DNA of 64,000 nt from Mobula hypostoma (GCF_963921235.1 NC_086108.1:81904001-81968000); one strand, 5' to 3'. Shown: positions 2,791-50,200, counted from the first letter of the stretch. Notes: a model not told the origin generated them from the sequence alone. Numbers and translations: made by a program.

Positions 2791-3471
2791 CAGTAGAAAT
2801 AAAGGTTATTTGAAGCAGTTCAACGTGGTTAACATATTGCATACTGTACATTTTATTGAAAATGTTTTTTCCTTTTATTCATTAACACAAAATGTTGAGC
2901 TCATCTAATCTGCATTTCAGAGCTAACCAAATAAAAGTTCTTGTATTGTTTGATGGATTATTGCAAATGCTATTACTGCTGAAGTTTTCATCAGCTGTTT
3001 GGGTAGCAGCATTTGATGTGTAGAGTCATAGAACACTACAACACACAAACAGGCCCATTGGCCCATCTAGTTCATGTCACACTGGTCTCCTCCATAGTTC
3101 TGTCTATCTGCGCCCGGACTATAACCTTCCATATCTCTCTTATCTGTGTACCTATCCAAGCATCCCTCGTATGATACAATTCCCCCTTCCCCTCGTACCC
3201 CATCTGTTATTTATTTATTTATATACATACATTCTTTCTCTCTCTCCTTTTTTCTCCCTCTGTCCCTCTGACTATACCCCTTGCCCATCCTCTGGGTTCC
3301 CCCCCCCTTCCTTCTCCCTGGGCCTCCTGTCCCACGATCCTCTCATGTCCCTTTTGCCAATCAACTGTCCAGATCTTGGCTCCATCCCTCCCCCTCCTGT
3401 CTTCTCCTATCATTTTGGATCTCCCCCTCCCCCTCCCACTTTCAAATCTCTTACTAGCTCTTCCTTCAGTT

Positions 3472-3507
3472 AGTCCTGACGAAGGGTCTGGGCCCGAAAC
3501 GTCGACT
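3472..3507 (+). ncRNA. Minimal type I hammerhead ribozyme motif (PLE)
   Basis: agtc-CTGACGA-a-ggg..ccc(stem II)-GAAA-cg-TC-gact. Stem I is agtc/gact. Predicted cleavage is after GTC at 3503. Confidence 0.8.
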
Positions 3508-3573
3508 GTACCTCTTCCGAGAGATGCTGCCTGGCCTGCTGCATTCACCAGCAACTTTGATGTGTGTTGCTTG

Positions 3574-6500
3574 TGCAGCCCCCCTGGCCACCCTCAGGGT
3601 CGCTCGGCTCGCTGTCGTCTAGGGAAACAGCCTTGGCCCCGCCAAACTGGGTAATTCGTTTGTGTGGATGCTGTGTGAGGTACCCCACCCTGCCCAAATA
3701 ACAGACATTACACCAGATGCAATTAAATGATTTACAGTTTATAGATATTACTGGAACTATATAATTAAAAGAGAATAAAATATAAAAGGAAAATAAAAGG
3801 CGCCACATTTATCAAAGTTCAATCTCTTCGTGCACAAACACCGTTGGAGCTCAAGGACCTTCTTCTTCACCCTGCGACCCCCTCGGACCACCTCGACCGG
3901 CCGCCTGGGACCAACAACAGTGGTCGACCAGACGCTCCACACGAGTCCATCTCCGTCTCCTCGCTGAACGTCCCGCTCGGGGTCCGACCCCGTTAGCGGA
4001 CTCACAGCATCTGGTCCATCCTCTGTCTCGCTCTCCCGCCTTCTGCCCCAAAACCCCGCGCTACAGTATCTTCAAATACACCAAAACCATAACAACTATC
4101 CCAATTGGTTAATAGCACCCTCTTATCACCCTCTAAACCACAATAAGCTGCTAGCGCAAACTTTCTCAGCGTTGAAGCACAACAAAGCCGCATTCCCCAG
4201 ATTAACATAACAAAAACGCCATTTTAATTAGCCTCCGCAGTAACATAAAAATCGAAACCCCCTTACACTCTCCCCCCACCAAATAAAGTCATGTCCTCAT
4301 GACTTCTAAATAACTCGCCACCCAGTCCTACAGATACACAACACACACATACACAGATACACACAGTGACAGTGCTCCCCAAACAGTAGACCTTACTCCC
4401 GTCCCACGGGCGCTAAATAGGCCAACCTATCTGGGAGCTTCTTAACCCTCTGAGACCTCCGTACCCCCTCACCTAAACCCAAAAGGCTCAGACACTACTA
4501 GGGATACCTCGGGCCTGCTTGCCAACTCCTCTCTCACTCAGGGCACCACTACAGCTCGGAACCCCCGTCCCGTGTCCGGGGCCCCGCCTCTCCTCCTTCC
4601 TGATCCTGATGACTGCCCACAGCTAGCCCTCCCCACTACACCTGACTCAGTGAGAGAAGGGCCAAAGGTCTCTTCCTCAATCACGGGGAAGTTAGCGAAA
4701 GGCAGCATGTTCCACATGTGCAGCACATCATCCTTTGAATCCGTATCCTTCCTCATTCCCTCGATCGATAGCTACTGGTTAAGTTTCTCCAAACTGAAAC
4801 ATTTAGCCCTTCAGCCTCCTGCAGTCGAGATGTCACCTTCTTCGGGGACTCCTTCAACTCTCACCACAGCCTCAGCAGTTCTGACTCAGGGTTCTTGGCC
4901 ATCTCAATCTGAGACGCAGTTACCCCACCAGCTTCTTCCACCCTGACCTGAAAAGCAGCAGTTAAAGAATGTTCAGCCTCCGGTTGTTTCTTCCTGAGGG
5001 CGTCCTCCAGGTCAACTTTCAGTTTTTCCACTTCATTTAAACTCGCGATAGTCATCTTCAGGTTCCTTTCAAGCGTCCGCCTCCCTTTTCCGAGATCTGT
5101 CCTCCATTTCTTTACCTCCTCGGGAGTGTAGTCAAACTCCCCTCCCTGGGCTCTCGGTTTTCTGTTGACCTTAGTCAGAACACTTCCTTGATCTTCCCCA
5201 ACTTGTAAATCTTCCAATCTGTTCTGAATGGACGTCTTGAGTTTCTGCTGATCCCTTCGAAGGTGGGTCATTGTTTCTTCTCGCTGGATTAATTTGTCAG
5301 TATATGACCGCAGTGCGGTGCAAATCCCCTCTCTTCTCTGTGTCTCATTCAGATTGACGACCTGGGTTTCCATCCCCCGGTCCAGCACCGTCTGTCCCAA
5401 CACCAGGAAGTTCAACTGGTATGTCGGGTCATTTTCCTCAGATTGCACCAAACTCCTCCGGCCAAAAACTCCTCCACATTTGACACTTCGCTTCGGTCGC
5501 CCAGGCTCAGCCACTCACCTCGCCTCATAATCTCCCCAGGCGAATCCAAGCTCTAGGCGGTCATCCACATACGTCAAAACTCCACACACCTTCACTTCCC
5601 CCATGGTTTTCCTCACGCCCCACGGGAAGGATGCAGGGGCTCCGGATATGCCCTTGGGCATCTTTTCGGATCGGAAGAATCCTAGGGAACTAGTAAAGGC
5701 CATCTTCAGCTCAACAGCTGCACTCCTCAGGATCTGGCAACATCCACCCCTCAGATGCAGCACATTAAACCACGTCGCATCATCCACACATGCGCTGCCT
5801 TCATCTTCCATGCCGCCAGGGTCCAGTTGCCGCGACCTCTCTCTCACTGAGGTGTCTTCAGCGGTCAACTCCCCTCCCTCGTGGTGGTTCGGAGCATCTA
5901 CTAAGAGGGTCTCACCCTCAGCTACTTTCCCCAAGCCGTACCACCGCTGGGTCTCGTTTAAATTCAGTACTGGCTCAAGGCTGCTACACACGTCCTCAGA
6001 AGCAACTCGACATGCTGGGTGCCCAGAAAATGCCTCCATGAACTCCAGGATCATTAACCAATCATCGTCTTCTGGATAATTACCGGCACTGGTACCCAAA
6101 GTCTCGGGTGCCCTTGCGGTTGTCAAGGATAAATGCTTCAGACACTGGTTGTAAAACGAACTGTACAACAACTTGATCTGTGCCCCGGGGTCGAGGATAG
6201 CTTTAGCATTGCTTCCCTCTATTCATAACGACACCCTGGGGCGTGGTCCCTCTAAGCCTTCAGGAATAGGGTCTTTTCCTTGCGGAAGTTCAGTGGTACA
6301 TTGCTAGGAACGTGCTTCCCCAGAGACCGCAGGCCGTTCCCCCACTGGACCTCCACTAAGTTTCCCGACACCTCTCTGATCAGCTGAACAACTGATCCCC
6401 TGAAATGATCCCCCTGGCACTACAAGCAATTTAGCCGCCCTCCTCGCCAGAGAAGACACACTGAAAACTTTCCCCCCCTTTCAAATAACTGACAGCTGTC

Positions 6501-7645
6501 ACTACGGTGTTTGTGAACCTGACAGCTCTAACACCGTCACCAGCCCGCCTACTCAAACTTTCAACCAATCCCTGTCGCTCTCCCTCAACCGAGCACTGCC
6601 ACTCATCTAACAACTGAGAGATCCGCTCTGCCCACGTCTCACACGTCTCCGCCCCTCCTGGGGTGGACACTATCCCCAGTGCCAGGCGGATCCTGCCAGA
6701 GCTAGAACATTTATTCGCAGACTCTACCTCCAAATCAGACCACTCTTTCCTCTCTCTCCCAACTGCATGGACAGCCCCGAGTTCCACCTCTAACTCGTCA
6801 ATGCTAGTCTGAACTCGAACAAAGACCGCACCCACAACGCATACAGCAATCAACAGCAAATAACCCACAGAGACACACATTACAGATTTAAACAGGGCAC
6901 CCACACAGCATACCAACAGACTCAAGCATCCCGGACAAAGCCCCCACAATGCAGCCTCCCTGGTCACCCTCAGGGTCACTCGGCTCGCTGTCGTCTAGGG
7001 AAACAGCCTCGGCCCCGCCCAAACTGGGTAATTAGTTTGTGTGGATGCTGTGTGAGGTACCCCACCCCGCCCAAATAACAGACATTACACCAGATGCAAT
7101 TAAATGATTTACAGTTTATAGATATTACTGGAACTATATAATTAAAAGAGAATAAAATATAAAAGGAAAATAAAAGGCACCACACTTATCAAAGTTCAAT
7201 CTCTTCGTGCACAAACACCGTTGGAGCTCAAGGACCACCTTCTTCACCCTGCGACCCCCTCGGACCACCTCGACCGGCCGTCTGGGACCAACAACGGTGG
7301 TCGACCAGACGCTCCACACAAGTCCGTCTCCGTCTCCTCGCCGAACGTCCCGCTCGGGGTCCGACCCCGTTAGTGGACTCACAGCACCTGGTCCATCCTC
7401 TGTCTCGCTCTCCTGCCTTCTGCCCCAAAACCCCGCGCATACAGTATCTTCAAATACACCAAAACCATAACAACTATCCCAATTGGTTAATAGCACCCTC
7501 TTATCACCCTCTAAACCACAATAAGCTGCTAGCGCAAACTTTCTCAGCGTTGAAGCACAACAAAGCCGCATCCCCCAGATTAACATAACAAAAACGCCAT
7601 TTTAATTAGCCTCCGCAGTAACATAAAAATCGAAACCCCCTTACA
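3574..7645 (-). mobile_element. Internally deleted (non-autonomous) Gypsy LTR element
   Basis: TG..CA LTRs at 3574-4267 and 6950-7645, about 3% divergent by manual count, with a 4-bp TSD CTTG. It has a tRNA-Pro-like PBS (TGGGGGCTTTGTCCGGGAT) next to 6949 and a PPT next to 4268. Gag, protease (ILDPGAQ) and RT (YVDD) remnants are present, with no RNase H or integrase core. Confidence 0.9.
4861..6171 (-). pseudogene. Chimeric pol-derived reading frame (protease tail, RT remnant, coiled-coil-like segment) with one in-frame TGA at 5515-5517
   Basis: ORFs 5515..6171 and 4861..5514 are adjacent and in the same frame. The RT-like stretch is MPKGISGAPASF..VLTYVDD. Confidence 0.7.
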
Positions 7646-8069
7646 CTTGAATTTCCAGCATCTGCAGAATTCCTCGTGTTTGCGAGGTTACAGAGAATGG
7701 TGTGCAGGATTTTCAGGCTCTGGATCCAGCACATTATTCTCCACAACTTCTGCCTTTTCATCTTCACTACCACCTTATTATTTTGGCTCCATGTATAGAT
7801 GATCATACAAATCTTCAGGAGGTGCAATATTGACCTTTGCTATCCTTTTCTTCATAATATTACTGTAATATAACTGTAGAAACCCTTGAGATTCTCTTTC
7901 ACCTTGTCAGCTAGACCAATTTTATGACCTCTTTCAGCTCTCCTGATTTCTTTCTCAAGTGTACCCTTGCATTTCTCATAATCTTCAAGTACCTTATTTA
8001 ACCCCAATTGCCTACGCCTGATATGCATCTCCTTTTTGGCCTCAACATCACTCGATAGATTAGATATGA

Positions 8070-8420: not shown

Positions 8421-9366
8421 TAATCAATTTAAGTTCTCTAAACTGAAGAGAAAATCTGCAGATGCTGGGAATCCAAGCAACACACACTAAATGCTGGAGG
8501 AAAAGAGATGCCGCCTGGCCTGCAGAGATCATCCAGCATTTTGTGTGTGTGGGTGTTCTTTAAACTTGTTAGCTTTGCCTTTTCTCTGACAAGAATATAC
8601 AGATTCTGTATTTTCAATATTTCAGTTTTTGCAGATCTCCCACTTACTAAGCACCCCACGAAACAACCTACCCAGTCCATGTTTGCCAGATCTCTTCTGA
8701 TGCAATCAAAATTGGCCTCTCTCCAATTTAGAATCTTAACCCAAGGCTTGTCCTACCCTTATCCATAATTATCTTGAAACTAACAGACTTATGATCACTA
8801 GGTCCAAAGTGTTCCCCTGTGCAGACTTCTGTCACCTGCCCTGTCTCATTTCTTAATGGGGCTTCCAGTATTACACTCAATCTAGTCGGGACCTCTATAT
8901 ATTGATTAAGGAAACATTTGACAAACTCTTATCTTATCCTGTTCTTTTACAGTATTAGTCCTAGTCAGTGTGTGAAAAGCTAAAATCAACAACTACCACA
9001 GCCTTGTATTTCCTGCATCTGTCTACCATCTCTCTACAAATTTGCTCCCCGAAATCCAGCCAACTATTGGGAGATCTATAATATAGTTCCATCAATGCGA
9101 TCATTCATTTTTTCATTCCTCAGTTCCACCCAAATTGCCTCAATAGACCAGTCCCATCCCCCAGTATGTCCTCTTGGTGCATTGCCATGGCATTTTTCCT
9201 AATTAATAATGCCACCATTCCCACTTCAATACTTACCCTTCTGTCATTCTAAAACAACGGAATCCTGGAACATTGAGCTGGCAGTCCTGACCTTCCAACA
9301 ACCAAGTCTTATTAATGGTTACAACATCATAATTCCGTATAGTGATCCAAGCTCCAAGTTTATCAA

Positions 9367-9842
9367 CACTTTGACTCATTTCAACTTTTCGGCCACACTT
9401 TGACTCATTTCAACTTTTCGACCACACTTCGACTCTTTTCAACTTTTCGACCACACTTTGACTCATTTCAACTTTTCGACCACACTTCGACTCTTTTCAA
9501 CTTTTCGACCACACTTTGACTCTTTTCAACTTTTCGACCACACTTTGACTCTTTTCAACTTTTCGACCACACTTTGATTCTTTTCAACTTTTCGACCACA
9601 CTTTGACTCTTTTCAACTTTTCGACCACACTTTGACTCTTTTCAACTTTTCGACCACACTTTGACTCATTTCAACTTTTCGACCACACTTTGACTCATTT
9701 CAACTTTTCGACCACACTTTGACTCATTTCAACTTTTCGACCACACTTTGACTCATTTCAACTTTTCGACCACACTTTGACTCATTTCAACTTTTCGACC
9801 ACACTTTGACTCATTTCAACTTTTTGACCACACTTTGACTCA
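9367..9842 (+). repeat. 29-bp minisatellite, about 16.4 copies (CACTTTGACTCATTTCAACTTTTCGACCA)
   Basis: 16 full units counted directly. Variants are CTCAttt/CTCTttt and TTTG/TTCG. Confidence 0.97.
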
Positions 9843-10199
9843 GACTCGCTATCACAGCCATATATCCTTTCTTGGAACGTGTTCAACTTCTCTAACTTCC
9901 GCTAGGCCCCACCTCCCCCTCGTACCCCATCTGTTACTCATTTTTATGCACACATTCTTTCTCTCACTCTCCTTTTTCTCCCTCTGTCCCTCTGAATATA
10001 CCTCTTGCCCATCCTCTGGGTCACCCCCCCCCTTGACTTTCTTCCCGGACCTCCTGTCCCATGATCCTCTCGTATCCCCTTTTGCCTATCACCTGTCCAG
10101 CTCTCGGCTCTATCCCTCCCCCTCCTGTCTTCTCCTATCATTTTGGATCTCCCCCTCCCCCTCCAACTTTCAAATCCCTTACTCACTCTTCCTTCAGTT

Positions 10200-10235
10200 A
10201 GTCCTGACGAAGGGTCTCGGCCTGAAACGTCGACT
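10200..10235 (+). ncRNA. Minimal type I hammerhead ribozyme motif (PLE)
   Basis: agtc-CTGACGA-agggtctcggcct-GAAA-cg-TC-gact. Confidence 0.8.
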
Positions 10236-11672
10236 GCACCTCTTCCTATAGATGCTGCTTGGCCTGCTGCGTTCACCAGCAACTTTGATGTATGTTGCTT
10301 GAATTTCCAGCATCTGCAGAATTCCTGTTGTCCAAGTTTATCAATACTCCTTACATTGAAATAGGTCCAACTCAGAACATTAGTCCCATCACGCTTAATC
10401 TTTCTGTTTCCATCTTTGCTTGTAGGCTCACGTCTACTTTCCCCACAACTACTTCAATATCTGCTCTGGTGTTCTGGTTCCCATCCCTTTGCAACTCCGT
10501 TTAAACCTGCCTCCTGCCCCCCCCCACCCCCTCCAGTTTAGGTACAAGCTGTCCCTTCTGTACAGGCCCTACCTTCCCTGGAAAAAAGGCCAAAGATCCA
10601 AAAATCTGAAGCCCTCTCACCTGTATAATTTCCTTAGCCATGAGATGAACTGTAGAGTCTCTCTATTTCTGCATTCACACAGGTAGCAATCCTGAGATCA
10701 TCACTCTGGAGGTCCTGTCCAGATCCTAACTCCCTGAACTCACTTTGCAGGGCCTCATCACCTTTCCTGCCCATGTCATTGGTGCCATTGTGGATCACAA
10801 TTTGACTGCTCACCCTCCCCCTTATAAATGCCCTGACTATGATCTGCAACATCTTTGATCTTTGATGTGATGACTTTTCCTGCCTCAATCATGTTGCACG
10901 CAATCTCACTGGCCTCTAACCTTTTAATTAAAACTTAAGCAATTTAAATGAAAACAACTTTGCATGCAGTTACTGTGGAACATGTTCACTTACAAGGAAT
11001 CTGCATTTTCCACGTCCTTTTTACATTAGTACAAAGTCAAAGGTGAGATTTATAATGTTTGTTTTCAGATCCTATTTCATTGTGTCCTAATCCTGTGCTA
11101 TCTTCCTGAATGTGCATCACCGCTGAGTGAAAATTATATTCTAAGAAAATTCCTTTGTGATTTATTCTTGTGTTCCTCATTACATGTATTTTCTGTTAGA
11201 GCAAGCAAGGAAAATCAGTATTTCCCCAATTTCAAAGAGTTTTAAATTTAGTTACCCGCTGTTGCAACTAATTAAAATTTTCCCCATAAATGAATCAGAT
11301 TGCACATTAACAGATATAAAACTTGCATGGATGTTTTCATATAAATTGCTCTAAATTTTGATCAAGCGTTTGGAGGCCAGTGAGTTTGCATGCAACGTAT
11401 TTTAAGCAAAAAAAATCATCACATCAAAGGTTCGCTGTATAGTTTACTAACTCCTTCGTTTTCATATCATTGTGTCCAGTATGAAACTTTCATGGTTTTT
11501 ATAATTCTTCCAAGTAGCACTTATTTAAAATTTATGTCCTTCGAAGATTGCAAAAAGTATATCTGGAGGGCAATAAATCAACATAGTGGCCTAGAATTTG
11601 TATATGCTTCAAAACATTAATAATGATGTAACGCCTTGGACTGTTAAGTGAAGAGGCTGGTTTCACACCAAT

Positions 11673-15334: not shown

Positions 15335-17180
15335 AAAAAGAAGCATCCAAAGAGCTTTTACAGGTATATTAAGAGCAAAAGGACGGTAAGGGATAAAATT
15401 GGTCGTCTTGAAGATCAGAGTGGTCGGCTATGTGCGGAACCAAAGGAAATGGGCGAGATCTTAAATAGGTTTTTTTGCGTCTATATTTACTAAGGAAACT
15501 GGCATGAAGTCTATGGAATTAAGGGAATCAAGTAGTGAGATCATGGAAACTGTACAGATTGAAAAGGAGGAGGTGCTTGCTGTCTTGAGGGAAAATTAAA
15601 GTGGATAAATCCCCGGGACCTGACAGGATGTTCCCTCAGACCTTGAAGGAGACTAGTGTTGAAATTGCGGGGGCCCTGGCAGAAGTATTTAAAATGTCGC
15701 TGTCTACGGGTGAGGTGCCGGACGATTGGAGAGTGGCTCATGTTGTTCCGTTGTTTAAAAAAGGATCGAAAAGTAATCCGGGAAATTATAGGCCAGTAAA
15801 TTTAACGTCGGTAGTAGGTTAAGTTATTGGAGGGAGTACTAAGAGATAGAATCTACAAGCATTTGGATAGCCAGGGACTTATTAGGGAGAGTCAACATGG
15901 CTTTGTGCGTGGTAGGTCATGTTTGACCAATCTATTGGAGTTTTTCGAGGAGGTTAGCAGGAAAGTGGATGAAGGGAAGGCAGTGGATATTGTCTACATG
16001 GACTTCAGTAAGACCTTTGACAAGGTTCCGCATGGGAGGTTAGTTAGGAAAATTCAGTCGCTAGGTATACATGGAGAGGTGGTAAATTGGATTAGACATT
16101 GGCTCAATGGAAGAAGCCAAAGAGTGGTAGTAGAGAATTGCTTCTCTGAGTGGAGGCCTGTGACTAGTGGTGTGCCACAGGGATCAGTGCTGGGTCCATT
16201 GTTATTTGTCATCTATATCAATGATCTGGATGATAATGTGGTAAACTGGATCAGCAAATTTGCTGATGATACAAAGATTGGAGGTGCAGTAGACAGTGAG
16301 GAAGGTTTTCAGAGCCTGCAGAGGGACTTGGACCAGCTGGAAAAATGGGCTGAAAAATGGCAGATGGAGTTTAATACAGACAAGTGTGAGGTATTGCATG
16401 TTGGAAGGACAAACCAAGGTAGAACATACAGGGTTAATGGTAAGGCACTGAGGAGTGCAGTAGAATAGAGGGATCTGGGAATACAGATACAAAATTCCCT
16501 AAAAGTGGTGTCACAGGTAGATAGGGTCGTAAAGAGAGCTTTTGGTACATTGGCCTTTATTAATCAAAGTATTGAGTATAAGAGCTGGAATGTTATGATG
16601 AGGTTGTATAAGGCATTGGTGAGGCCGAATCTGGAGTATTGTGTTCAGTTTTGGTCACCAAATTACAGGAAGGATATTAATAAGGTTGAAAGAGTGCAGA
16701 GAAGGTTTACAAGGATGTTGCCAGGACTTGAGAAACTCAGTTACATAGAAAGGTTGAATAAGTTAGGACTTTATTCCCTGGAGCGTAGAAGAATGAGGGG
16801 AGATTTGATAGAGGTATATAAAATTATGATGGGTATAGAAAGAGTGAATGCAAGCAGGGTTTTTCCACTGAGGCAAGGGGAGAAAAAAACTAGAGGACAT
16901 GGGTTAAGGGTGAGGGGGGAAAAGTTTAAAGGGAACATTGGGGGGGCTTCTTCACACAGAGAGTGGTGGGAGTATGGAATGAGCTGCCAGACGAGGTGGT
17001 AAATGCGGGTTCTTTTTTAACATTTAAGAATAAATTGGACAGATACATGGATGGGAGGTGTATGGAGGGATATGGACCGTGTGCAGGTCAGTGGGACTAG
17101 GCAGAAAATGGTTTGGCACAGCCAAGAAGGGCCAAAAAGCCTGTTTCTGTGCTGTAGTTTCTATGGTTTTCTATGGTTTC
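15335..17180 (+). mobile_element. Younger CR1 LINE, 5'-truncated, RT domain with a few stops and frameshifts
   Basis: ORFs 15601-15822, 15827-16468 (GVPQGSVLGPLLF, FADD) and 16505-17002. The tail is a (tttctatgg) repeat. Confidence 0.92.
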
Positions 17181-22335: not shown

Positions 22336-24916
22336 GAGTGAGACCTTCATCTTTGTTAAAATCCTTATTCTCTAATCTTATTATCATTCCAGAAACTGTG
22401 GAAATGTAGGGAAGATAGGTGATAGTGAGTGGTTAGTCCTTGGGATGTTTCCTGGTTTTCTCGTTGGCCCTTTTAAGGGCCTGATTGATTTCCTTTGCCT
22501 TATAGCCATTCTGTAGTAACGTCGTGCATAATTGTCTTATTTCCTCATGCAGACACTTTCTCTCTCTGGGAGATGTGATGGTGACTGTTATTGTTGAGGT
22601 ATAAATCTCTTTGAGTGGGCTTCCAATCTTTCCATGGTTTCTGGAAGGATCGCCAGGAACCTGAAGAAATACTGGATTAGTACCATCCACAAACCCATAC
22701 AGAAGCTCAAATCGCAGTTTGTGCAGGTCAAAGATGACCTGGGACCCAGGATAGCTGGCAATTACGGGATTCCCTGTGATTGCAGAGCGGTGTGTATCAG
22801 CCAGATGGGATGCATGGTGGAAACCCTCATCAAGGAGCATTGGAAGTTCACGTTACACGGTAGCAGAACATTGCATACACAATGACCGTAGAATTGATTT
22901 CAACAGCACAAAGCTACTGTGCCACGCCAATGGCTTTTGGGACTGCCTGGTGAAAGAAACCATTGAAATAAGAATAGAGAATAAGAATTTTAACAAAGAT
23001 GGTCTTGCTCAAAGTTAAGAACTGAAATTCAATTATAAACAAGGTGGGACAGCGGGAATCTGATTGGTTGAGGGCTAACCAATCAGCAAGGACAGATAAC
23101 GGTGGGTATATACACCACCGAACTAGACATGCCTAAGCATCATCCCTAATGAAGATGAGAGTTTGCCATCAAAACGTCGGTTAAAATAGATACCTGTACT
23201 CGGCTGGAAAACCCAAGAAGAGTTTATTCATCATATACACTGGGAAAGCACTAGATCCTTCTAATCTGTAAGTACGTTTACCAAAGAATGATTTTTGTGT
23301 ATTTTTCCATTTTGTGGAGCCTGTTAACCAGGGGCAGCTTGTATTACCATTGTCAAGTCCCATATCATCATTATCAAAGTCAACTGGGCAATTGCGACTG
23401 CAGGAGCAGATCAAAAACTGTGTATCCTGTGGGGAGTGACTTTCCTCCTGGCATCTCTTTTTGCCAGCTACAAAGCAGTGGTCAGGAGTGTGGTGGAATA
23501 AACTGCAGCTACCCAGATGACTGCAACACTACCAACACTGAAAGCTTGATGATAAAGAAGCTTGTTTGATTGGCACCTCATCCACCAAAATAAGAGCACA
23601 GTCATTCTACCACCAATTCATAATGGTACATGTATCCACAAAATGCAGTGCAGTTAACGTTCTCAGTTTCTCAGACAGCAGTTCCTAAATCTATGGCCTT
23701 GATCATCCAAAAGATCAACCGCTAGTTCTCCTCTAAGGTGCAAACAATCCTAACTTGAAAATATATCATTCCTGTACTGTCAATGGATCTAATTCCAGAC
23801 AGCACCTTCTTGTCTGTCTATCCACTTACCTAACAAATAGCATTGTACGACTATCCTCCTTCAATATTGCAGATTTTCAAGATACTGGTTTGCCATCACC
23901 TCTAGTAATTAGAGATGGGCAAAAAATGCTTACCTTTCCCGCATTCTGAAAACTAAATTCTCCACTACCTGGAAGTCTTTACCTTCATGCAAAATTAGTT
24001 AAATTGAAAATCTTCCAAAAGCATGTTTTTCAAACTAGTTTCAACTAATTCAGAATTGTTTGTATCATCAACATTTTGGTACTGTTAAGACTTTGTCTGG
24101 TTTCATTAAGAGCTTTGTTTAATTACAAATGGAAGGTTGTCCTTCATTGCAAGTTGGCTAGAACATATAAGTACCAAAATTTTGCTGTGGCTGAACAACT
24201 TTGTTGATTCCATTTAGACTAGTATGTCCCATGAGAAGAGGTTATGCTGGTTGGGTCAACACTGTATGGTGTTTTTACAGAATGGAAGTTGAGATCATTG
24301 AAATATACAAGATTATGAGTAATGTATTCTTTAAAGAGAGAACCTAGACCTGGATAAGGATTTCACTCATTTAGGAGGAAAGAAAACTGTCTTCCCTCAA
24401 AGGGCTGCGAGTCTTTAACTGGTGTAAATCTTGATCCCAGAGAGCTGTTGAAACTCAATCATTGTGTATATTAAGGCTTATTTCATATTTTAGTGGAATA
24501 AGCATTCTGAAGACTAAGTAGGCCAGTGAAGTTCTGTCCAAGATCAAGTAAATTATGATCTCATTGAATTGTGGTGCAACAGTTCAAGGAACTATGTAAG
24601 CCTGTGTTCCTGCTCCTATCACCTCTCTCTAAATTTTGCCAAATAATTACTTTTTTCCAAATCAATTCTGTCATGATTTTATCATGTAACTTGTCTCAAA
24701 TAGTCTACAAATTTAATGTTTTCTTAAGTTTGGAAGAAAGTAGTTTGCCACTGATCATTTGTGTCTTGCTAGTTGTGACTGTGACCCTTTGATCACTCCA
24801 CTTGAGGTGGCCAGGATGATATATTTCATGGATTTAAACTCTGACATATTAAACAAACTGGAATGTTTGTAGCATTTTGTTAATGCCTGCTAAGTCCTCT
24901 TTTAATCTGTCCTCAG

Positions 24917-27320: not shown

Positions 27321-27495
27321 CACACTAAATGCTGGAAGGATTCAGCAACTCAGCCAACATCTATGGAGGGAAATAAACAGTTGGTGTTTGGGCTGAGAAT
27401 TCCTGATGAAAGGGTCTTGGCCTGAAATGTCGACTGTTCATTTCTTTCCAGGGATGCTGCCTGACTTGCTGAGTTCCCTAAGCATTTTGTGTGGT
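27321..27495. mobile_element. Palindromic non-autonomous PLE-derived element with central hammerhead core
   Basis: Inverted pLTR halves around tcCTGATGAaagggtcttggcctGAAAtgTCgact. Similar, shorter palindromes occur at about 8452-8550, 30672-30790 and 43343-43490. Confidence 0.7.
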
Positions 27496-28166: not shown

Positions 28167-28947
28167 GTAAATGGACAGAATGAATAAAGGATTCTTTGCT
28201 TCAACATTTGGTTGTTCATTGATGAGAAGGAGACAAGTGATTCTGAACAAAGACTTCCACTTCTGCTTATATATTGGAACTGTTTTACTGGCAGCTCATA
28301 CTGATAACAAAGGAGAGAGTAGTGAGAATAAAATTAGTCAGCGTTAATAAATGTTCACGATCTACAAGTCAGGAGTGTGGTGAAATACTCACCCATTACC
28401 TGAGTGAATCTATTTTCCAACAACATTCAAGAATATCAACACCATAAAGGACATGGTAGGCCACTTGATAGGCACCCTATCGATAACCATTCACTCACTC
28501 CAGCACCAGCACACAGTAACAATTTGTACCATCTAAGCTTCCTTAGATGGCACCTTCCAAACCAATGACCTCTGCCTGGAGGATAAGGACAGCAAAAGCA
28601 TGGGAGCACCACTAATTAGAAGTTGTATTTCAATCCATACACCGCCCTGACTTGGAAATAGTTCACTGTTCCTTCACCGTTGCTGGGTGGATGTGCTGGA
28701 ACACCCTCTCTAACTACATTATGGGTATGCCCTTTAGAACTGCAGCGGTTCAAGAAGGCTGCCAACCACTACCTTCTTAAGGGCAATTAGGGATGGACAT
28801 TTAAATGCTGGCTCAGCATGTGAATACAGAAATACTGAATTTTTGCTAAAGGTTTGCTAAGGTTAGGTTAGTATACTGTACTGAGCAGAAGTTTTCGGCA
28901 CACATATATATAGCTAAGGTGCCTAAAACTTGCATAGTACTGCAATA

Positions 28948-29349
28948 GTGAATGAACTCGCTGGAAGAAATTACTGGTAGATACAAAGCAGCTTCTTTAT
29001 TCGACAAAACAAGGTACAGCAGGCATCATGTGGAGACAATTTCGGTAGAAAGGTCTGCTGGCCCAACGTGAGACTCGATATTTTATGTGCTAAACACGAA
29101 GGACAATTCCATATTTACAAAGTGTAGATAATGCTTCCTTTTGAAACTACATACAAACTTCACACCTCGTGATCTGCATCCATACCACAGACGCCAGCAT
29201 CATCTGGACTGGGATTCACAGCTTTTAAGAACCCATTGTTCAGACCTACACTCCAAATAAAATTCACAATACATATTCAAAGGCAAAAGACTGGTAGCCA
29301 AAGCCATTTGCCAAAGGTAAATGACCCAAACCCAAAAATCACTCTAACA
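28948..29349 (-). mobile_element. Truncated LTR-like segment
   Basis: Ends in ..ctctaaca (TGTTAG on the minus strand), has a minus-strand AATAAA, and abuts a local duplication. Confidence 0.45.
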
Positions 29350-31573
29350 GATGGCACCTTCCAAACCAATGACCTCTGCCTGGAGGATAAGGACAGCAAA
29401 ATCATGGGAGCACCACTAATTAGAAGTTGTATTTCAATCCACACACCGCTCTGACTTGGAAATAGTTCACTTGCACAGTCCTTTAGTAATTTTACATATT
29501 ACACTGTACTGCTGCCTTTAAAAGCAAAATTCATGATATATGTGAGTGATGATAAACCTGATTCTGATATGGGTCTCTGTTGTGGAGTGAGAGTGGGAAG
29601 GAGGCAGAGAAAGGGGAGTCATGGTTGGGAAAAGGAGGAAGGGAGCAGCAAACACCAGAAAGACAATTCGTAATGATCAATAAACCAATTGTTTGGAACC
29701 TTGACCTTGCCTGGTGTCTCAGGACTGAATGTGCCTGTACCTGCACCACCCCCACCCCAGTATTCCTTCTCTGCCACCTCTCCCACACGCCGCCCACAGC
29801 GTTCCACCCTTGCCATTCCCAATGTTCTATTTATTATAGATTATTATAAATTACTGTGATTGCACATTTAGACGTAACATAAAGATTTTTACTCCTCATG
29901 TATGTGAAGAATGTACAAAATAAAGTCAATTCAATTCAATTCAATATCCTTTGCTCCCACCGGATTTACCAACTCGCTCTCTACTCTGCATTTACAAAAA
30001 ACAGTACTGTGCAAAAGGCTAGAAGCATTTCTCACTTCTTTCATCCCTCATTGTGAATGCACTGCATTTTTCCATTCCCTTTCCCTTCTAAATGCTTATA
30101 GCTGGAGTGCCGGAGACTTCTGCACAATACCGCATGTAGGCTTTAATCACCACAAACACATTTTGTTTCCAATATGAGTGCTGACAAAAGAGAATAAGGA
30201 TCACTGAGGGATAATAAAGCAGGAGTTTCAACTTGTGCAAAACCCCAAGACCCATGTATTATCAGTCTGACCAAGGGCTGGGCTCTTTGGTTCCAAATTA
30301 GGCCAAAGGGAAGTGATTTTTAAAGCTGTCATATTCCCAAGTGTGAACCAATGGGGTGACATCCTTAAGGGAAAGAGAATGGAAAAATGCAATGCATCCA
30401 TAATGAGGGATATAAAAAGTGAGAAATGATTCTAGCAAGGGTTGTTAGACCATTTGTTTATGGTAGCTTTTACCACAAACAATGGTTCAGGCTTCTTTCA
30501 GGGAAAATACGATAAAATTTGAAGTGGAGGAAGCCTTGAAATAAAAGCAAAAGGACCACAAGTTTCTGCTCGAGGTGGGGAATAGAGGAAAGCATGTTTC
30601 AACATAATTTCATTGAGTTTTGCACCAGGTGATAATACAACAGAAAATTAAGATTTTAGAAACCTGAAGCATACAGAAAATCCTGAAACCACTCAGCAGA
30701 TGTTGAAGCATCTTAAAAAAAAAAGTGAACATGCAGCAGCTGTAAATGCTGCCTAGCCTGCTGGGCTTTTCCTGACTCAGCATTTTCTGTCATTTTGTAA
30801 GCAATCCTGGTAAAAGCAGTCATTCCTGAATTCTAAGGGTGGAAAAACAGCATGTGCTGCTCCAGATTTTCTGAGTAGATAGCAGGAGAACAAAGGCAGC
30901 TCCCTCTGTGAGGTCAGGACGTAGCCTGGAGATAAGAGACAAAAGGGCGCATTTTGTTTAATTTTGATATGACTCTAATATTATGATATTTTACTCTTTT
31001 TTTATATAATATTGCTCACAAATTGAGAAATACTTTGAAGAAAAATACTGATAGAACTCAGCCTATTTTCCATTTTCCTTTCAATAGCTTGTAGTCCACA
31101 ACATTGGACTATGCTTTTCCTACCCTTCTTCGTATCCTCTATATGAGAAAATATTTTTTTTCCATTCCTCATCAGTATTTGTACCTGTTACTTTATATCC
31201 ACGCATGCATCCTGATATTGATCTCTTTATGAATAGAAATTAGTCCATATCTTTGCCTATCATAATGTTCTGTTCCTCAGTTAGACCTCTCCTTGGTTTC
31301 CACAAATCTTAAGAAAACCTCCAAACTAGCATTGTCTACTGTTATTAATAGCCTCACAAATATCTCCCTAATGTTCTACCTACTGTTGAATCCCATAGAC
31401 TTTTGTTTTTCTTACCAATCTGTTAAAGATGCTTGTTAAAAGCCTTGCTCAGATGGATGCGGATCATATCAAAAAAAGCTACTTATTGGTGTAGTTACAT
31501 AAACATGGACCAAGGGTTAATTATGATTTTCTGTAATAACATTTTATGATTATGTATGTTTTGTGTTACTCAG

Positions 31574-40802: not shown

Positions 40803-42235
40803 TAGTGCCTTGAAAAAGAATTCACTGCTCACAACTGTTTTCACAATTTACTGTCTTATTTGCTTAGTTTCAAATACATCAAAGTAATTTTTTGAGCTAA
40901 TCTACAAAACATTGTGCATCATGTCAAATCAAAAGAAAAATTCCAAAAGCTGTCAACAGCTTACTGAAAATTGAAAACCAATATTGTGAGGCTAAAAAAT
41001 TATTCATCGCCTTTGTAATTACTACACTGACCTACTGCAGGAGAAATATATTACCTTATTTATTGATAATGTTCATCAATATGTGTTGATATTGGAAGAT
41101 CACCTGCTTTCAGTGAATCCATAAGAATAAACGCAACCTCTCTCTGTTAGGTCCAACAGTTTGGTAGTTTTTTAACAGACCAAATCAAAATGAGGACAAA
41201 AGGGCTTTCAAAACAAGTCAGGGAAATAATAACAGAGAAGCAAAAAATTTGGGGGCACAAGACTGTCTCAAAGCTACTGAACATACCTCGGAGCTCATTG
41301 CAGTCCATCGTGAAAAAATGGAAAAATGTGAATCCCGCAGCCACTCTGCCTACGTCGGGCCACCCTTCTCTACTTAGTTGCTGGAGAAGAGAGGCTACTG
41401 TAATGCCAACAGTCACTCTGAGTGAGCTGCAGAAGTCAGTTGCTGCAACTGGAGATGAAGTTCACGGCTCCACAATCTCTAAAACCTTGCACATAAAGGG
41501 TATTTATGAAAGAGTGGCAAGGAAGAAGCCCTGGCTAGGAAAAAAAAGCATATCCTTGCTCCTAAAGACATTGCAAAGCATCACTTAGAAGGTACTATAA
41601 AGATGTGGAAGAAGGTCTTGTGGTCGGATGAAATTGAAGTGAAACTTTTTGACTTCAACTCTAAGTCGTACATAAATCTAATACTGCTCATCCGCCAGGT
41701 AATGCCATTCTTGCTATCAAGTGTGGTGGAGGTAGCATCATGCTATGGGGATGCTTTTCAGCAGCAGGAAAGATTAATGTTGCTAAATATAGAGAGATCC
41801 TGGATAAAAACCTGCTAGCCTCTGCCAGAAAGCTTAAACCAGGAAGGAAGGTTTTCTTTCATCAGGGCGGTGACCCAAAGCACACTGCCAGGGCAGCCAT
41901 GGAGTGGCTTTAGATGAAGAAATTTGATGTATTTGAGTGGGCCAGCCAGAGTCCTGACTTTAACCCACTCGAACATAACTGGCAAGACCTCAAGATTTCT
42001 GTCCACTGTCACTCCCCAACTAATCTGGCACAGCTTGAGCAAGTTTGCAAGTGGGCAAATCTTGCTCCGTCACATTGTGCAAAGCTAATAGCGACTTATC
42101 CAGAAAAACTGCTGGTTGTAATAGTTGCGAGAGGTGGTTCAACTAAGTACTGAGCAAATACTTCTGAAGTGCTGACATTTCAGGTTTGAATTTTTAGTTT
42201 TTCATGCTTTACAATTTTCTTTATTTTTTGTTGAG
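40803..42235 (+). mobile_element. Tc1 transposon with decayed transposase, right end truncated
   Basis: ORF fragments MRTKGLSKQVRE.., WKKVLWSDE, EWASQSPDFNPLEH and RGGSTKY*. A TIR-like start follows TA at 40801. Confidence 0.88.
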
Positions 42236-43027: not shown

Positions 43028-44207
43028 TAGCAGTAAGCTTGACATCTTTGGTTTCGAAAATGCTGGAATATATTATCAAGGAAATGTTAACGTGACATTT
43101 AGAAACCAGTAAGTGGATTGGACACTTTATTGGTGAAAAACCTGTAAGAATTACTCATGAAATTGTTATTCCATTATATGGACAAACCAGCCCATGTGTG
43201 TTGGTCTTTCAGAAGGCATTTCTTAGCCACATAGGGATTAAAGAAAATTGGTTTGGAAGTTTTTTATGAGCAATATACTGGGTGGGTTAAATGTCAGCTA
43301 ATGGTCAGTAAAATGTAGAATGAGCAAGTGATAAACAAGAGATTCTGCAGATGCTGGAAATCCAGAGACACGCACATAAAATGCTGGAGGAACTCAGCAG
43401 ATCAGGCAGGGTCTTGGCCCAAAATATCAACTGTTTATTCCTATCCATAGTTGCTTCTTGACCTATTGAGTTCATCCAGCATTTTTTGTCTGTTACTAGG
43501 GATAAGCATGTTATTTTTAGCTGGATGCTGTGACTGGTGAGGTGCTGCAGTTTCCCAGCTATTTATAATAAAATGTATGTCTTTGATTGTAATGAGGTTA
43601 GATGGTGTTAAAGTGTACTTTTTCCAAGTTTGCATTGCCATCCTTTGTATTATTAGTATAGAGTACAAAGCGTTTCATTGACAAATTAAAGTGAAAAGAC
43701 ACTGTAGATGTCCTTTGGTAGCAAAAATATGTTGATTTGTTTTCTTTTACGGTGAGACTTGAAAGAGGAACCCAGTTTGTTAACATGCAGGGAAAGAGAG
43801 TAATTAGGAATACCAGAAGCATGCTGCCCTTCATTTGAAAAGAATGAAAATACAAGATGTATCTGGGTCAAATAACACAGGACCTGGTGAAATTGCAATA
43901 GAAGTATTATGTACTGGTCCAGTCTTCCTACCTAAAGAGGAAAATAGTTGAGATTTAGAGAATTCAGCAAAGGTTTGCCAATTGATTCTGGTATGCCATG
44001 TTGTAGAGTAAGTAGAAGAATGTGAGGTGACCTTTTTGAACAGTACACAGTTCTCTTGGAACATGCAGGATAGCTGTTAGATGGGATTCTCTTGGCTAAT
44101 GTGTCTGGAATAAGGGATTACAAACCCGAAACTGAATATTAAACTATTCAGGAATGTGAAGAGGTTTCTTCAGCTAGAGCAGGTAATCCCAACCTATAGT
44201 TCCCCAA

Positions 44208-44765
44208 ACAAAAGGAATTCTGCAGATGCTGGAAATTCAAGCAACATACATCAAAGTTGCTGGTGAATGCAGCAGGCCAAGCAGCATCTATAGGAAGAGG
44301 CGCAGTCGACGTTTCAGGCCGAGACCCTTCGTCAGGACTAACTGAAGGAAGAGCGAGTAAGGGATTTGAAAGTTGGAAGGGGAGGGGGAGATCCAAAATG
44401 ATAGGAGAAGACAGGAGGGGGAGGAATAGAGCCAAGAGCTGGACAGGTGATAGGCAAAAGGGATACGAGAGGATCATGGGACAGGAGGTCCGGGAAGAAA
44501 GACGGGGGGGGGGTGACCCAGAGGATGGGCAAGAGGTATATTCAGAGGGACAGAGGGAGAAAAAGGAGAGTGAGAGAAAGAATGTGTGCATAAAAATGAG
44601 TAACAGATGGGGTACGAGGGGGAGGTGGGGCCTAGCGGAAGTTAGAGAAGTCAATGTTCATGCCATCAGGTTGGAGGCTACCCAGACAGAATATAAGGTG
44701 TTGTTCCTCCAACCTGAGTGTGGCTTCATCTTTACAGTAGAGGAGGCCGTGGATAGACACGTCAG
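44208..44765 (-). mobile_element. Penelope-like element 3' end (GIY-YIG tail plus pLTR)
   Basis: Reverse complement of the 9884-10330 copy. 10-bp TSD AGTTCCCCAA at 44198-207 and 44766-75. Confidence 0.9.
44304..44339 (-). ncRNA. Minimal type I hammerhead ribozyme motif (PLE)
   Basis: Minus strand reads agtc-CTGACGA-agggtctcggcct-GAAA-cg-TC-gact. Confidence 0.8.
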
Positions 44766-45211
44766 AGTTCCCCAAGTCAGGAGCCCTTGAGATAGTTAAT
44801 GAATCTTTGGAACTCTGCAGCTAAAGAAAGCTCTGAAGGCTCAATCACTAAATATGTTCACAACACATTTTGATAGGTTTTTGGTATTAATGGAATCCAG
44901 GGATATTAAGTTAATGCAGTTCAGTGGCGCTAAGATCTTATTGAACGATGGAGTAGAATAAGTTGCTCCTTGTGTTTCTTGTGTTTTTAAACACTTTTCC
45001 AAACCTTTCAGAGTTGCTGTTCACAAAATCCAGAATTTAAGTAAAGATCAGAGTGACAAGCTCTTCAATACTGACCTCATGTCTGATAAGTTACTGAAAT
45101 TTTTAACTGGCTTGCTTCCGGAGTATCTTGAAATATTGAAGAAATTGAAGACTTACTCTTATACCAGGAGACTGATAAAGATTGTACCTTTTTTTTCCTC
45201 CTTTGGGTTAG

Positions 45212-46977: not shown

Positions 46978-47012
46978 AGTCCTGAAGAAGATCTCGGCCA
47001 GAAATGTCGACT
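46978..47012 (+). ncRNA. Degenerate hammerhead motif (PLE pLTR)
   Basis: agtc-CTGAAGA-agatctcggcca-GAAA-tg-TC-gact. Stem II is disrupted. Confidence 0.45.
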
Positions 47013-47266
47013 GTTGATTCATTTCCCTAGATACTGCTTGACCTGCTAAGTTCCTCCAGTATTTTATATTTGTTGCCTTAAACAGTCAAAATCTATTTTT
47101 TGCCAAAGTAGAATTGACAAGAACGAAAGACATTCATTCTAAATGGGGGGAGATGTCAAAGGGAGATGGGTGGGCAGTTTATTTTTAACGCAGTTTGTAG
47201 GTGCCTGAAACAGGCTGCCAGCGGTAGTGGTGGAAGCAGATACGAAAGTGGCATTTAAGCTGGTCA

Positions 47267-50200
47267 TGTAGCGGTGCGCTACACACAGCGCTAGAATAAC
47301 CACACGGAGTCAGTGAGTTGGAGTTGCGATAAAGAGATTTATTCAAACTTCGCGGCCTGTTTTAAAGCCTTCCCGTTTCCGCCCTCCCTGGGCGGGACTG
47401 CTGTGGGGAATGCATATTCCCAGACCCTTTCCGCGCGCGGGATTTTCTCCCTGCTGGTGAAGATGGCCTGGCGCCCTTTTTGGGGCCGGCCCTCAGCCTG
47501 CGCACGCTGTTGTGAGCTGGTTCGTCGGTGCCAGAAAGTGGGTTGCCACATAACCCCCCCCCCCAGAACCGGCGATACCTCCCCCAATGTCCACAGTCTG
47601 GATCGGCCTCTGTTTGGGAGGTCTGCCCCTGCGCCGCAGTGCCTGAGCCTGGACCGGCTGCGCCAAGTCCACATGGGCCGATTTGAGTCGGTCCACTGTG
47701 AAAACCTCCTCTCTCCCCCCAATGACCAGCACGAACGTGGATCCGTTGTTCCTGATCACCTTAAACGGCCCCTCGTAGGGCCGCTGTAGCGGTGCCTGGT
47801 GTCCGCCCCGTCGTACAAAAAGAAACTTACACTTCTGCAGGTCTTTGGGTACGCAGGTCGGGCTCTGTCCGTGCTGTGAAGTGGGGATGGGGGCCAGGTT
47901 ACCGAGCCTCTCCCGTAGTCTGTCCAGGACTGCTGTGGGTTCTTCCTCTTGCCCCCTTGGGGCTGGTATGAACTCTCCTGGGACTACCAGGGGTGCGCCG
48001 TACACCAACTCGGCCGACGAGGTGTGCAGATCCTCTTTGGGCGCCGTGCGGATTCCGAGCAGGACCCAGGGAAGCTCGTCCACCCAGTTAGGCCCCTCCA
48101 GGCGGGCCATGAGAGCCAACTTCAGGTGACGGTGGAAACGCTCCACTAGTCCGTTCGACTGTGGGTGGTAGGCAGTTGTGTGGTGTAGCTGCAATCCTAA
48201 AAGTCTGGCCATAGCCGACCACAGGCTGGAGGTGAACTGGGCGCCCCTGTCGGAGGTAATGTGGGCTGGTACCCCGAAGCGGGCTACCCAGGTTGCGATC
48301 AGTGCTCGGGCACAGGATTCAGAGGTGGTGTCAGTGAGCGGGACTGCCTCTGGCCATCTGGTGAACCGGTCTACGATAGTTAGGAGGTACCGCGCTCCTC
48401 GCGACACTGGCAGGGGCCCCATGATATCCACATGAATGTGGTCGAACCTCCGGCGGGTGGGTTCGAACTGCTGCGGCGGAGCCTTGGTGTGCCACTGCAC
48501 CTTGGCCGTTTGGCACTGCATGCACGTTTTGGCCCATTCACTGACCTGTTTACGCAGCCCATGCCACACAAATCTGTTGGAGACCAGCCGGACGGTTGTC
48601 CTGATGGAGGGGTGCGCTAAGTTGTGAATGGATTCGAAAACCCGCCGGCGCCAGGCTGCTGGGACGACGGGGCGGGGTTGTCCGGTAGCTACGTCACATG
48701 GTAGGGTCCTCTCACCTGGGCCTATGGGGAGGTCTTGGAGCTGCAAACCGGAGACTGCAGTCCTGTAACTGGGGATCTCAGCGTCTGCCTGCTGTGCCTC
48801 TGCCAGCGCTGCATAGTCCACCCCCTGGGACAGGGCCTGTGTGGTAGGTCTGGATAGTGCGTCCTCCACGACGTTGTCCTTTCCCGAGACATGCCGGATG
48901 TCCGTCGTGTACTCGGAGATGTAGGACAGATGTCGCTGCTGGCGGGACGACCAGGGGTCGGACACCTTCATGAACGCAAAGGTAAGTGGTTTGTGGTCTG
49001 TGAACGCGGTGAAGGGCCAACCTTCTAAGAAGTACCTGAAATGCCAGATTGCCAGGAATAGTGCCAATAGCTCCCGGTCGAAAGCACTGTATTTGAGTTC
49101 AGGTGGTCGTAGGTGTTTGCTGAAGAATGCCAGGGGTTGCCAGCGACCCTCGATGAGTTGTTCCAGCACTCCACCGACTGCTGTGTTGGATGCGTCCACT
49201 GTGAGGGCAGTAGGAACGTCCGTTCTGGGATGCACTAGCATCGCGGCGTTTGCCAAGGCTTCTTTGGTTTTAACGAAAGCGGTTGCGGCCTCTTCGTCCC
49301 AGGTAATGTCCTTGCCCTTACCTGACATTAGAGTGAAGAGGGGGGTGCATGGTTCGGGCTGCTGAGGGGAGGAAATGGTGGTAGAAATTCACTATACCCA
49401 CAAACTCCTGCAGGCCTTTGATTGTGTTGGGTCGGGGGAAGTTGCGGACCGCGTCTACCTTGGCGGGCAGCGGGGTTGCCCCGTCTTTAGTAATCCTGTG
49501 GCCCAGGAAGTCGATGGTATCGAGTCCGAACTGGCATTTGGCTGGGTTGATTGTAAGGCCGAATTCGCTCAGGCGGGAGTGGAGCTGGCGGAGGTGGGAC
49601 AGATGCTCCTGCCGACTACTGCTGGCTATAAGGATGTCGTCCAAATAGATGAATGCAAAGTCCAGGTCGCGTCCCACCGCGTCCATTAGCCACTGGAAAG
49701 TGTGTGTGGCATTCTTTAGATCAAACGGCATTCGGAGGAATTCGAAAAGTCCGAACGGGGTGATAAGTGCTGTTTTGGGGATGTCGTCTGGATGTACCAG
49801 GATTTAATGGTATCCCCGGACGAGGTCTACCTTGGAAAAGATCCTTGCGCCGTGTAGGTTTGCTGCAAAGTCTTGAATGTGCAGCACAGGGTAGTGGTCT
49901 GGCGTTGTAGCCTCGTTCAGCCTGCGGTAGTCACCGCATGGTCTCCAGTACCCCCCCCCCCAAGTTGCCTTGGGCACCATGTGCAGGGGGGAGGCCCATG
50001 GGCTGTCGGACCGTCGTATGATCCCCAATTCCTCCATCTTCTTGAACTCCTCCTTCGCCAGTCGGAACTTGTCCAGGGGAAGCCTTGGAGCACGGGCGTG
50101 GAGGGGTGGTCCCTGGGTCGGGATGTGGTGCTGTACTCCATGTCTGGGCATGGCTGCCATGAACTGCGGTGTCAGTACTGATGGGAAATCCGCCAGGACC

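Follow-up and report, generated by a model that had tools for sequence, protein, structure and literature searches.

A minisatellite built from the ORF start of a Penelope-like element inside a single young insertion in Mobula hypostoma

How an array of 29-bp units came to lie inside an insertion of a Penelope-like element (PLE), and whether the reverse transcriptase (RT) of the element could have copied these units one after another, is the question raised by this locus of the window, the stretch of 64,000 nucleotides from Mobula hypostoma (GCF_963921235.1 NC_086108.1:81904001-81968000) that was analysed as a whole. The first-pass annotation had proposed that the minisatellite was born from Penelope sequence within one insertion, possibly by reiterative, telomerase-like copying, and that the target-site duplication (TSD) encloses both the array and the pseudo-LTR. 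The enclosure and the birth within one insertion were both upheld. The array and the 3' part of the element lie between exact copies of a 14-bp TSD (TCCAAGTTTATCAA), which bound the insertion at 9367-10330, and the unit aligns to the start of the PLE ORF. In a chance control, no 14-mer was common to the two members of any of 20,000 random pairs of 40-nt windows. The right junction (10310-10487) is spanned by a contig of organism A with 0 differences. An assembly artefact was considered and is unlikely in view of this contig and of the patterned variants of the units, the array length itself being taken from the assembly alone. The features, collected in Table 1, are those of a single young PLE insertion that holds a minisatellite built from its own ORF start.

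Table 1. Parts of the PLE insertion and their positions in the window.
Feature	Position	Strand	Evidence
Left TSD copy	9353..9366	+	Exact repeat of 10331-10344
Partial unit 0 (final 12 of the 29 bases), at the 5' junction	9367..9378	+	
Fifteen full extra copies of the 29-mer, carrying A29T, T23C and single changes	9379..9813	+	Tandem-repeat and variant map
68-base piece of the PLE ORF start (FQLFDHTLTQTRYHSHISFLGT)	9814..9881	+	tblastn, segment test, multi-copy contig cover in organisms A and B
Unit 16, the copy in native position, first 29 bases of the 68-base piece	9814-9842	+	
4-base filler TTCA, internal junction	9882..9885	+	Comparison with sibling and contigs
PLE 3' end, from the final codons of the GIY-YIG ORF through the 3' region to the pseudo-LTR	9886..10330	+	97.5% identity to sibling
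Stop codon of the GIY-YIG ORF remnant	9903-9905	+	
Minimal hammerhead-like core	10204..10231	+	By inspection only
Right TSD copy; T10331 could equally be the final base of the element	10331..10344	+	

The family of the element was assigned through its relatives, in which RT and GIY-YIG domains were found, the insertion itself being without them. The 3' part of the insertion (9886-10331) and a sibling copy on the minus strand (44208-44651) differ at 11 of 446 aligned columns (97.5% identity). The frame upstream in the sibling (P0002) is a GIY-YIG C-terminus and shows 93%, 81% and 84% identity to ray PLE proteins named from Mobula hypostoma and Hypanus sabinus. P0003, 93% identical to the sibling frame, carries a YIDD motif and a weak GIY-YIG Pfam match (E = 0.00046, below the curated cut-off), and P0008 carries RVT_1 and a weak GIY-YIG match. 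In the ray PLE relatives, YIDD is accompanied by a CX4CxxC linker and by a GIY-YIG motif that encloses a CxxC, and the CX2-5CxxC linker before the endonuclease together with the CxxC between GIY and YIG was present in four of four proteins (P0003, P0004, P0005 and P0008). This layout of cysteine motifs is the one described for Neptune and Nematis PLEs (PMC8557442), and by these motifs the element is assigned to the Neptune/Nematis type of endonuclease-bearing PLEs, Neptune and Nematis being taken together. The hammerhead-like core, recognised by inspection only, consists of CUGACGA, a short helix II (three pairs in this copy), GAAAC and GUC. A search of Rfam gave no match up to E = 1, and the folding z of 10170-10335 was -1.13; minimal hammerheads do occur in PLE repeats (PMC4209133). 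The sibling (44198-44775, minus strand), which served as control, is 5'-truncated inside the GIY-YIG C-terminus, has a TSD of 10 bp (TTGGGGAACT) compared with the 14 bp of the insertion, and holds no array. An older copy of the same family (3182-3573 and 7646-7684, span 3182-7684) has neither an array nor a clear TSD; it is split by an LTR element (3574-7645) with terminal repeats of ~698 bp, 97% alike, and a 4-bp duplication CTTG.

The origin of the 29-mer was then sought in the element. The first-pass annotation had recognised, beyond the last unit, a frame resembling the N-terminal part of PLE ORFs, and this was confirmed by alignment and by a segment test. The last unit continues in frame into FQLFDHTLTQTRYHSHISFLGTC, which can be aligned to PLE ORF N-termini; in P0008, FKLFNLILTKTRFVSHIHFIGRC aligns against the FQLFDHTLTQTRYHSHISFLGTC of the window, and the frame of the unit reads FQLFDHTLT where the PLE N-terminus reads FKLFNLILT. 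In a tblastn search within the window, residues 16-39 of P0008 matched the 68-base piece with 54% identity (E = 0.004). Of 60 long relatives, the 25 in which an N-terminal KTR..SH..FL follows 20 or more residues served as rows of the segment test, and the 35 without this match were excluded. Eight residues inside unit 16 outscored 99.4% (best row, p = 0.006) and 98.6% (mean, p = 0.014) of random window peptides, whereas eight residues from the preceding unit, in the upstream frame of the array, gave p = 0.91 and 0.85. Since unit 16 scores high and the frame of the preceding unit does not, the 29-mer represents about ten codons of the ORF start. In the bin 9795-9831, whose last base is unit position 18, the summed contig depth was 7,972 (X1), 866 (X5) and 8,041 (X6), a sum that is no copy number; the depth of the unique flank was roughly 10-20, 3-5 and 48-63, respectively. 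Protein alignment and multi-copy contig cover together indicate that the 29-mer is element-derived, ORF-start sequence, and the case of a unit foreign to the element, which had been named as fatal to the proposal, did not arise. Direct protein searches with the array-to-ORF peptide retrieved 0 relatives, among 2 candidates in one case and 1.84 billion representatives in the other; the link between the unit and PLE proteins was obtained via the endonuclease end of the sibling. DNA patterns had no match in metagenome contigs or viral contigs.

If the array were a fixed part of the family, its birth would not belong to this insertion. It was found in neither of the two other same-family copies of the window (0/2). 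Contigs of runs X1, X5, X6 and X9 were aligned to 9795-10900, a segment that includes only 1.6 array units and has the left flank outside. X5 and X6 represent one sample of organism B, which is related to organism A; the counts are incomplete for X1 and X6 but not for X5, and X9 was too shallow at the site. In organism B, where the family is at high copy, no contig reaches into the array (X5 and X6, counting incomplete for X6). One record each in X5 and X6 runs over an end of the aligned segment and is explained by the right end; X1 has three such records. As no record of organism B runs over the left end and both other copies of the window lack it, the array is local to this copy and not a fixed feature of the family, collapsed contigs permitting further chimeric copies in organism A. 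The flank in organism B differs from that in organism A at 19 of 594 bases in three X5 contigs (3.2%). The contigs of organism B start matching at exactly 10331, and the loose ends after 10331 begin TTGCG. A 259-base contig matches only 10331-10487, and the 102 bases that precede 10331 are unlike the window. These unlike bases, known by number only, suggest for the one sample that organism B has the empty site.

The internal pattern of the array was informative on its growth. Tandem Repeats Finder described it at 9366-9842 with a period of 29, 16.4 copies, 97% matches and 0% indels, and a 17-mer from the unit had 16 matches compared with 0.20 expected. When phased from TTTCAAC, the array consists of a 12-base partial at 9367, 15 extra units and unit 16, which runs into non-repetitive sequence, and the spacing of all 16 junctions is exactly 29. 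The common variant, A29T, sits at the unit junction and is present in units 2 and 4-9; T23C is present in units 2 and 4, and single changes occur in units 1 and 7. The junction letters AATATTTTTTAAAAAA form 5 runs over the 16 junctions (runs test against random order, p = 0.035). The clustering of A/T variants seen in the first pass thus stands, but a second shared variant, T23C, which marks a two-unit duplication, had been overlooked. T23C and A29T are found together in units 2 and 4 with A-type units alternating, the chance of an independent second hit being about 1%, and this pattern is probably the mark of a duplicated 58-bp block of two units. Later turnover of the array at the DNA level is evident from the dimer duplication, the clustered variants and the invariant 29-bp period, and the variant pattern would be due to duplication at the DNA level. 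A single origin of A29T would mean that six or more units, or about seven counting the dimer, were made or overwritten afterwards, so that many rounds of copying by the RT are unnecessary. Turnover at such a rate suffices to bring a seed to the full array, and the original units could number at most about 9. With 5 mutation events in 477 array bases, a likelihood ratio of 6.9 favoured an early full size over gradual growth for an age of 1.0% (half the sibling divergence); the same ratio was only 1.2 for an age of 1.6% (half the A-B divergence), and the count was judged not decisive.

The smallest possible seed could be deduced from the 5' junction. At the start of the insertion the first 17 bases of the unit are missing, yet every full unit contains them. 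A copy truncated at 9367 is unable to supply them, and a truncated single copy therefore cannot be the seed. At a minimum, the seed comprises 1.4 units, with a direct repeat of 12 bp separated by a spacer of 17 bp, and it most likely arose at integration. In agreement with the earlier proposal that at least the seed arrived with the insertion, the array most likely began with a seed made at that time. Past the right TSD, the target reads A-TACT where the in-register unit reads A-CACT (4/5 alike), which is consistent with a 5' join through short, imperfect homology. TSDs and microhomology joins at the 5' end are known for PLEs (PMC3846280), and 5' joining by short homology also for R2 (PMC2718515).

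At the internal junction, a jump at a ttcaactt that also occurs in the repeat unit had been described; that this sequence is native there was not borne out. The sibling reads ATTG-ACTT at this site, and the consensus of loose ends before 9886 ends ATTG or ATCG in all four runs (108, 36, 60 and 6 records); only ACTT is native to the 3' part. One X6 contig carries the ORF piece past 9881 with CC. Since the ORF side continues with CC and the 3' side is preceded by ATTG or ATCG, TTCA (9882-9885) differs from the usual sequence of both sides and is a filler. Filler and native ACTT in sequence are identical to unit positions 2-9, a match with a chance of 1.2% for a random 4-mer. The polymerase could have visited the unit start once before, two different jumps then having one template take-off point, a coincidence that is suggestive only. 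Alternatively, the filler may consist of one added base and CpG decay of a native ATCG; 5 of 13 CpG sites differ between the insertion and the sibling.

The explanation that we prefer, at about even odds (a probability of roughly 0.5), is that template switching by the RT at integration made the seed, and that most of the 16 copies were produced later by ordinary duplication at the DNA level. Target-primed reverse transcription would begin at the end of the pseudo-LTR (10331) and copy 445 bases, then switch to the ORF start at 9881, leaving the 4-base filler, and copy 68 bases up to the unit start. A back-jump of 29 bases would follow, at least once, and the last partial copy of 12 bases would be joined to the target via short homology. 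On the resulting direct repeat of 12 bp with its spacer of 17 bp, slippage or unequal exchange could readily act, with a period of 29 bp. What the data show is how the insertion is built, that its unit comes from the element and how the variants are distributed; beside this we infer the order of events and the enzyme that made the seed. Against this explanation, the searches retrieved no native sequence from upstream of the unit in which the homology used by the back-jump could be read.

The enzyme is the point at which another explanation departs, one to which we give a clearly smaller weight. The seed would be made at integration by host end-joining, through microhomology-primed templated synthesis of the polymerase-theta type on the cDNA end, instead of by the PLE RT, and expand later; an internal deletion with the 4-base filler would have the same origin. 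The filler that copies nearby sequence and the imperfect 5' microhomology are both present at this locus, and short templated fillers and imperfect microhomology at junctions are typical signatures of repair. Microhomology-mediated 5' joins and internal deletions have been reported for PLEs (PMC3846280), and repair pathways are among the models for the 5' attachment of L1 (PMC2912911). However, the copied pieces are all in sense orientation and all from the element, as expected of RNA-templated jumps, and a clean 14-bp TSD is retained; as for the choice between host repair and PLE RT, the sequence alone fits either enzyme.

The time at which the first repeat appeared is questioned by a further reading, to be held slightly less likely still, in which all the repeats are posterior to the insertion. 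The join would have been made via TCAA, which ends the TSD and equals unit positions 3-6. A block of 29 bp reaching into the end of the TSD would then have been duplicated and expanded, and the first unit would later have lost 11 bases. The last six bases of the TSD, TATCAA, do agree with the unit start TTTCAA at 5/6 positions, and with the next base included (TATCAAC and TTTCAAC) at 6/7, and turnover at the DNA level is, as described above, evident. Two extra events are nevertheless required, an A to T change at unit position 2 before the expansion and the 11-base deletion. Moreover, the 4/5 match between the target and the in-register unit becomes a coincidence, and the first codon of the unit (F) agrees with P0008.

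Repeated copying by the RT itself, the mechanism put forward in the first pass, appears improbable. Here, the PLE RT would have re-copied the 29-base segment five or more times in one integration, with a fixed boundary and realignment like those of telomerase, DRT2 and DRT10, and turnover would only have edited the product. The enzyme would have stalled at a boundary near the ORF start, in an RNA region that is probably protein-binding, and reset by 29 bases again and again; several exact repeats in the chromosome would then be the fossil of a telomerase-like addition. One and the same take-off site is suggested by the junction of the array and by the internal filler (with the 1.2% chance given above for the filler match), the common variant sits at the unit junction, and the mutations are few for a gradually grown array under one of the age estimates. 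In addition, the segment is near the ORF start, a region that in an anole PLE (Poseidon) holds the minimal RNA and RT start sites (PMC11167929), and PLE RTs are closely related to TERT and DRT10 (PMC12632851). Precise repeat addition by telomerase and DRT10 needs an alignment repeat and a boundary stem (PMC12632851, PMC12039810), although an alignment repeat of 2-3 bases can suffice (PMC12632851). At this locus, no A-A' alignment repeat was found when the unit start was compared with +29 (downstream side), and the 68-base piece is without a stable stem (-4.1 kcal/mol). The period is invariant, whereas the RT of R2, on running off a template or jumping, appends non-templated bases (PMC2718515), and the dimer duplication and clustered variants indicate events at the DNA level. 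It is also a single locus, the filler has its CpG-decay explanation, and the anole element is from another clade. Many-fold re-copying is thus not supported as the main mechanism, as duplication at the DNA level can account for the number of units, and the short seed expanded later, which had been named as the alternative, fits better. Since a likely slip at integration was followed by likely ordinary DNA duplication, the locus is weak evidence for telomerase-like repeat synthesis.

Two further candidates were rejected: copying from a small RNA of 29 nt or from a small circle, since downstream ORF sequence follows seamlessly on the unit that was made first, and a non-LTR retrozyme, because the unit is ORF sequence with no hammerhead in each unit, no Rfam match and folds of about -0.2 to -0.7 kcal/mol.

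The locus is a well-resolved new case of a transposon-derived minisatellite, a kind of array in connection with which the Haber-Louis and Jurka-Gentles models are discussed (PMC3389668). Such minisatellites are common, and a start during retrotransposition followed by slow local expansion has been proposed for them; their origins are poorly explained, a mechanism having been assigned to only 6% of transposon-derived arrays (PMC3389668). The human arrays described in that source resemble the present one in the retrotransposon-derived unit, the short direct repeats as start and the later local expansion. They differ in that the donor is here a PLE coding segment and the copy that bears the array, at its 5' junction, is chimeric; its 16 units are also far more than the mean of about 2.3-2.4 reported for Alu-derived arrays (PMC3389668). 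Neptune/Nematis-type PLEs likewise have a GIY-YIG C-terminus, a variable TSD and 5' truncation with microhomology, as well as a pseudo-LTR with a hammerhead-like core, of which the core recognised here by inspection is a candidate counterpart (PMC8557442, PMC3846280, PMC11167929). The tandems described for PLEs in these sources consist of entire or partial elements, hundreds to thousands of bases long, whereas here a 29-base ORF segment is repeated, and in this copy, unlike known PLEs, the ORF start precedes the 3' end with the middle missing. Animal non-LTR retrozymes are also PLE-derived tandems, for which PLE ends are the proposed source and local amplification after insertion the proposed route (bioRxiv 10.64898/2026.07.22.740005); their units derive from the pseudo-LTR, with a hammerhead in each, in contrast to the coding sequence without hammerhead of the present unit.

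Re-copying of a template by an RT at insertion is documented in other systems. L1 ORF2p slips on Alu A-tails during insertion, a behaviour that its authors compared to telomerase and alongside which the 3' repeats of the I-factor were cited (PMC3415434); these events concern the 3' priming end and simple repeats, whereas the present array is a complex 29-mer at the 5' end. Template jumping and tandem copying of templates are documented for R2 proteins (PMC11371274). Telomerase, DRT2 and DRT10 likewise produce exact head-to-tail copies of an RNA segment, and TERT and the DRT10 RTs belong to the broad clade of PLE RTs (PMC12039810, PMC12632851), but a dedicated RNA with an alignment repeat and boundary structure is used there, while the present array shows turnover at the DNA level. 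In the literature covered by the search, for the most part openly accessible, neither an array at a 5' junction nor repeat addition by a PLE RT was seen to be described. By keeping its TSD, a probable seed geometry and a variant map, the locus offers a clear worked example of minisatellite birth at a retrotransposon 5' junction. The repeat-addition reading, if true, would give a direct route to new minisatellites by the closest retroelement relative of telomerase. If the youngest PLE copies throughout the genome proved to bear long homogeneous arrays at their junctions, this would be evidence for processive repeat addition by PLE RT with a bearing on the origin of telomerase, for which one locus is insufficient.

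Other repeats were noted in the window. Similarity to the pseudo-LTR or the ORF end of the PLE was also seen in diverged pieces at 2052-2420, 8432-8550, 27401-27493, 43334-43489 and 46980-47075, and a more distant PLE-like ORF fragment (22376-22852, minus strand) gave a weak tblastn match with P0019 (E = 0.06). An LTR-retrotransposon-like element, which we take to be Gypsy-like, occupies 47266-51620 on the minus strand, with 285-bp repeats that are 94.7% alike and gag/pol-like frames. RT-like LINE frames, presumably CR1-like, and transposase-like frames, presumably Tc1-like, were seen at 15818-17002 and 41151-41818. A 123-bp direct repeat, 97.6% alike, is present at 28545-28667 and 29349-29471, 804 bases apart. 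Just to the right of the insertion, 10860-11429 forms a long inverted repeat with arms of 78 and 27 bases that are 78-85% complementary, possibly a decayed non-autonomous DNA transposon.
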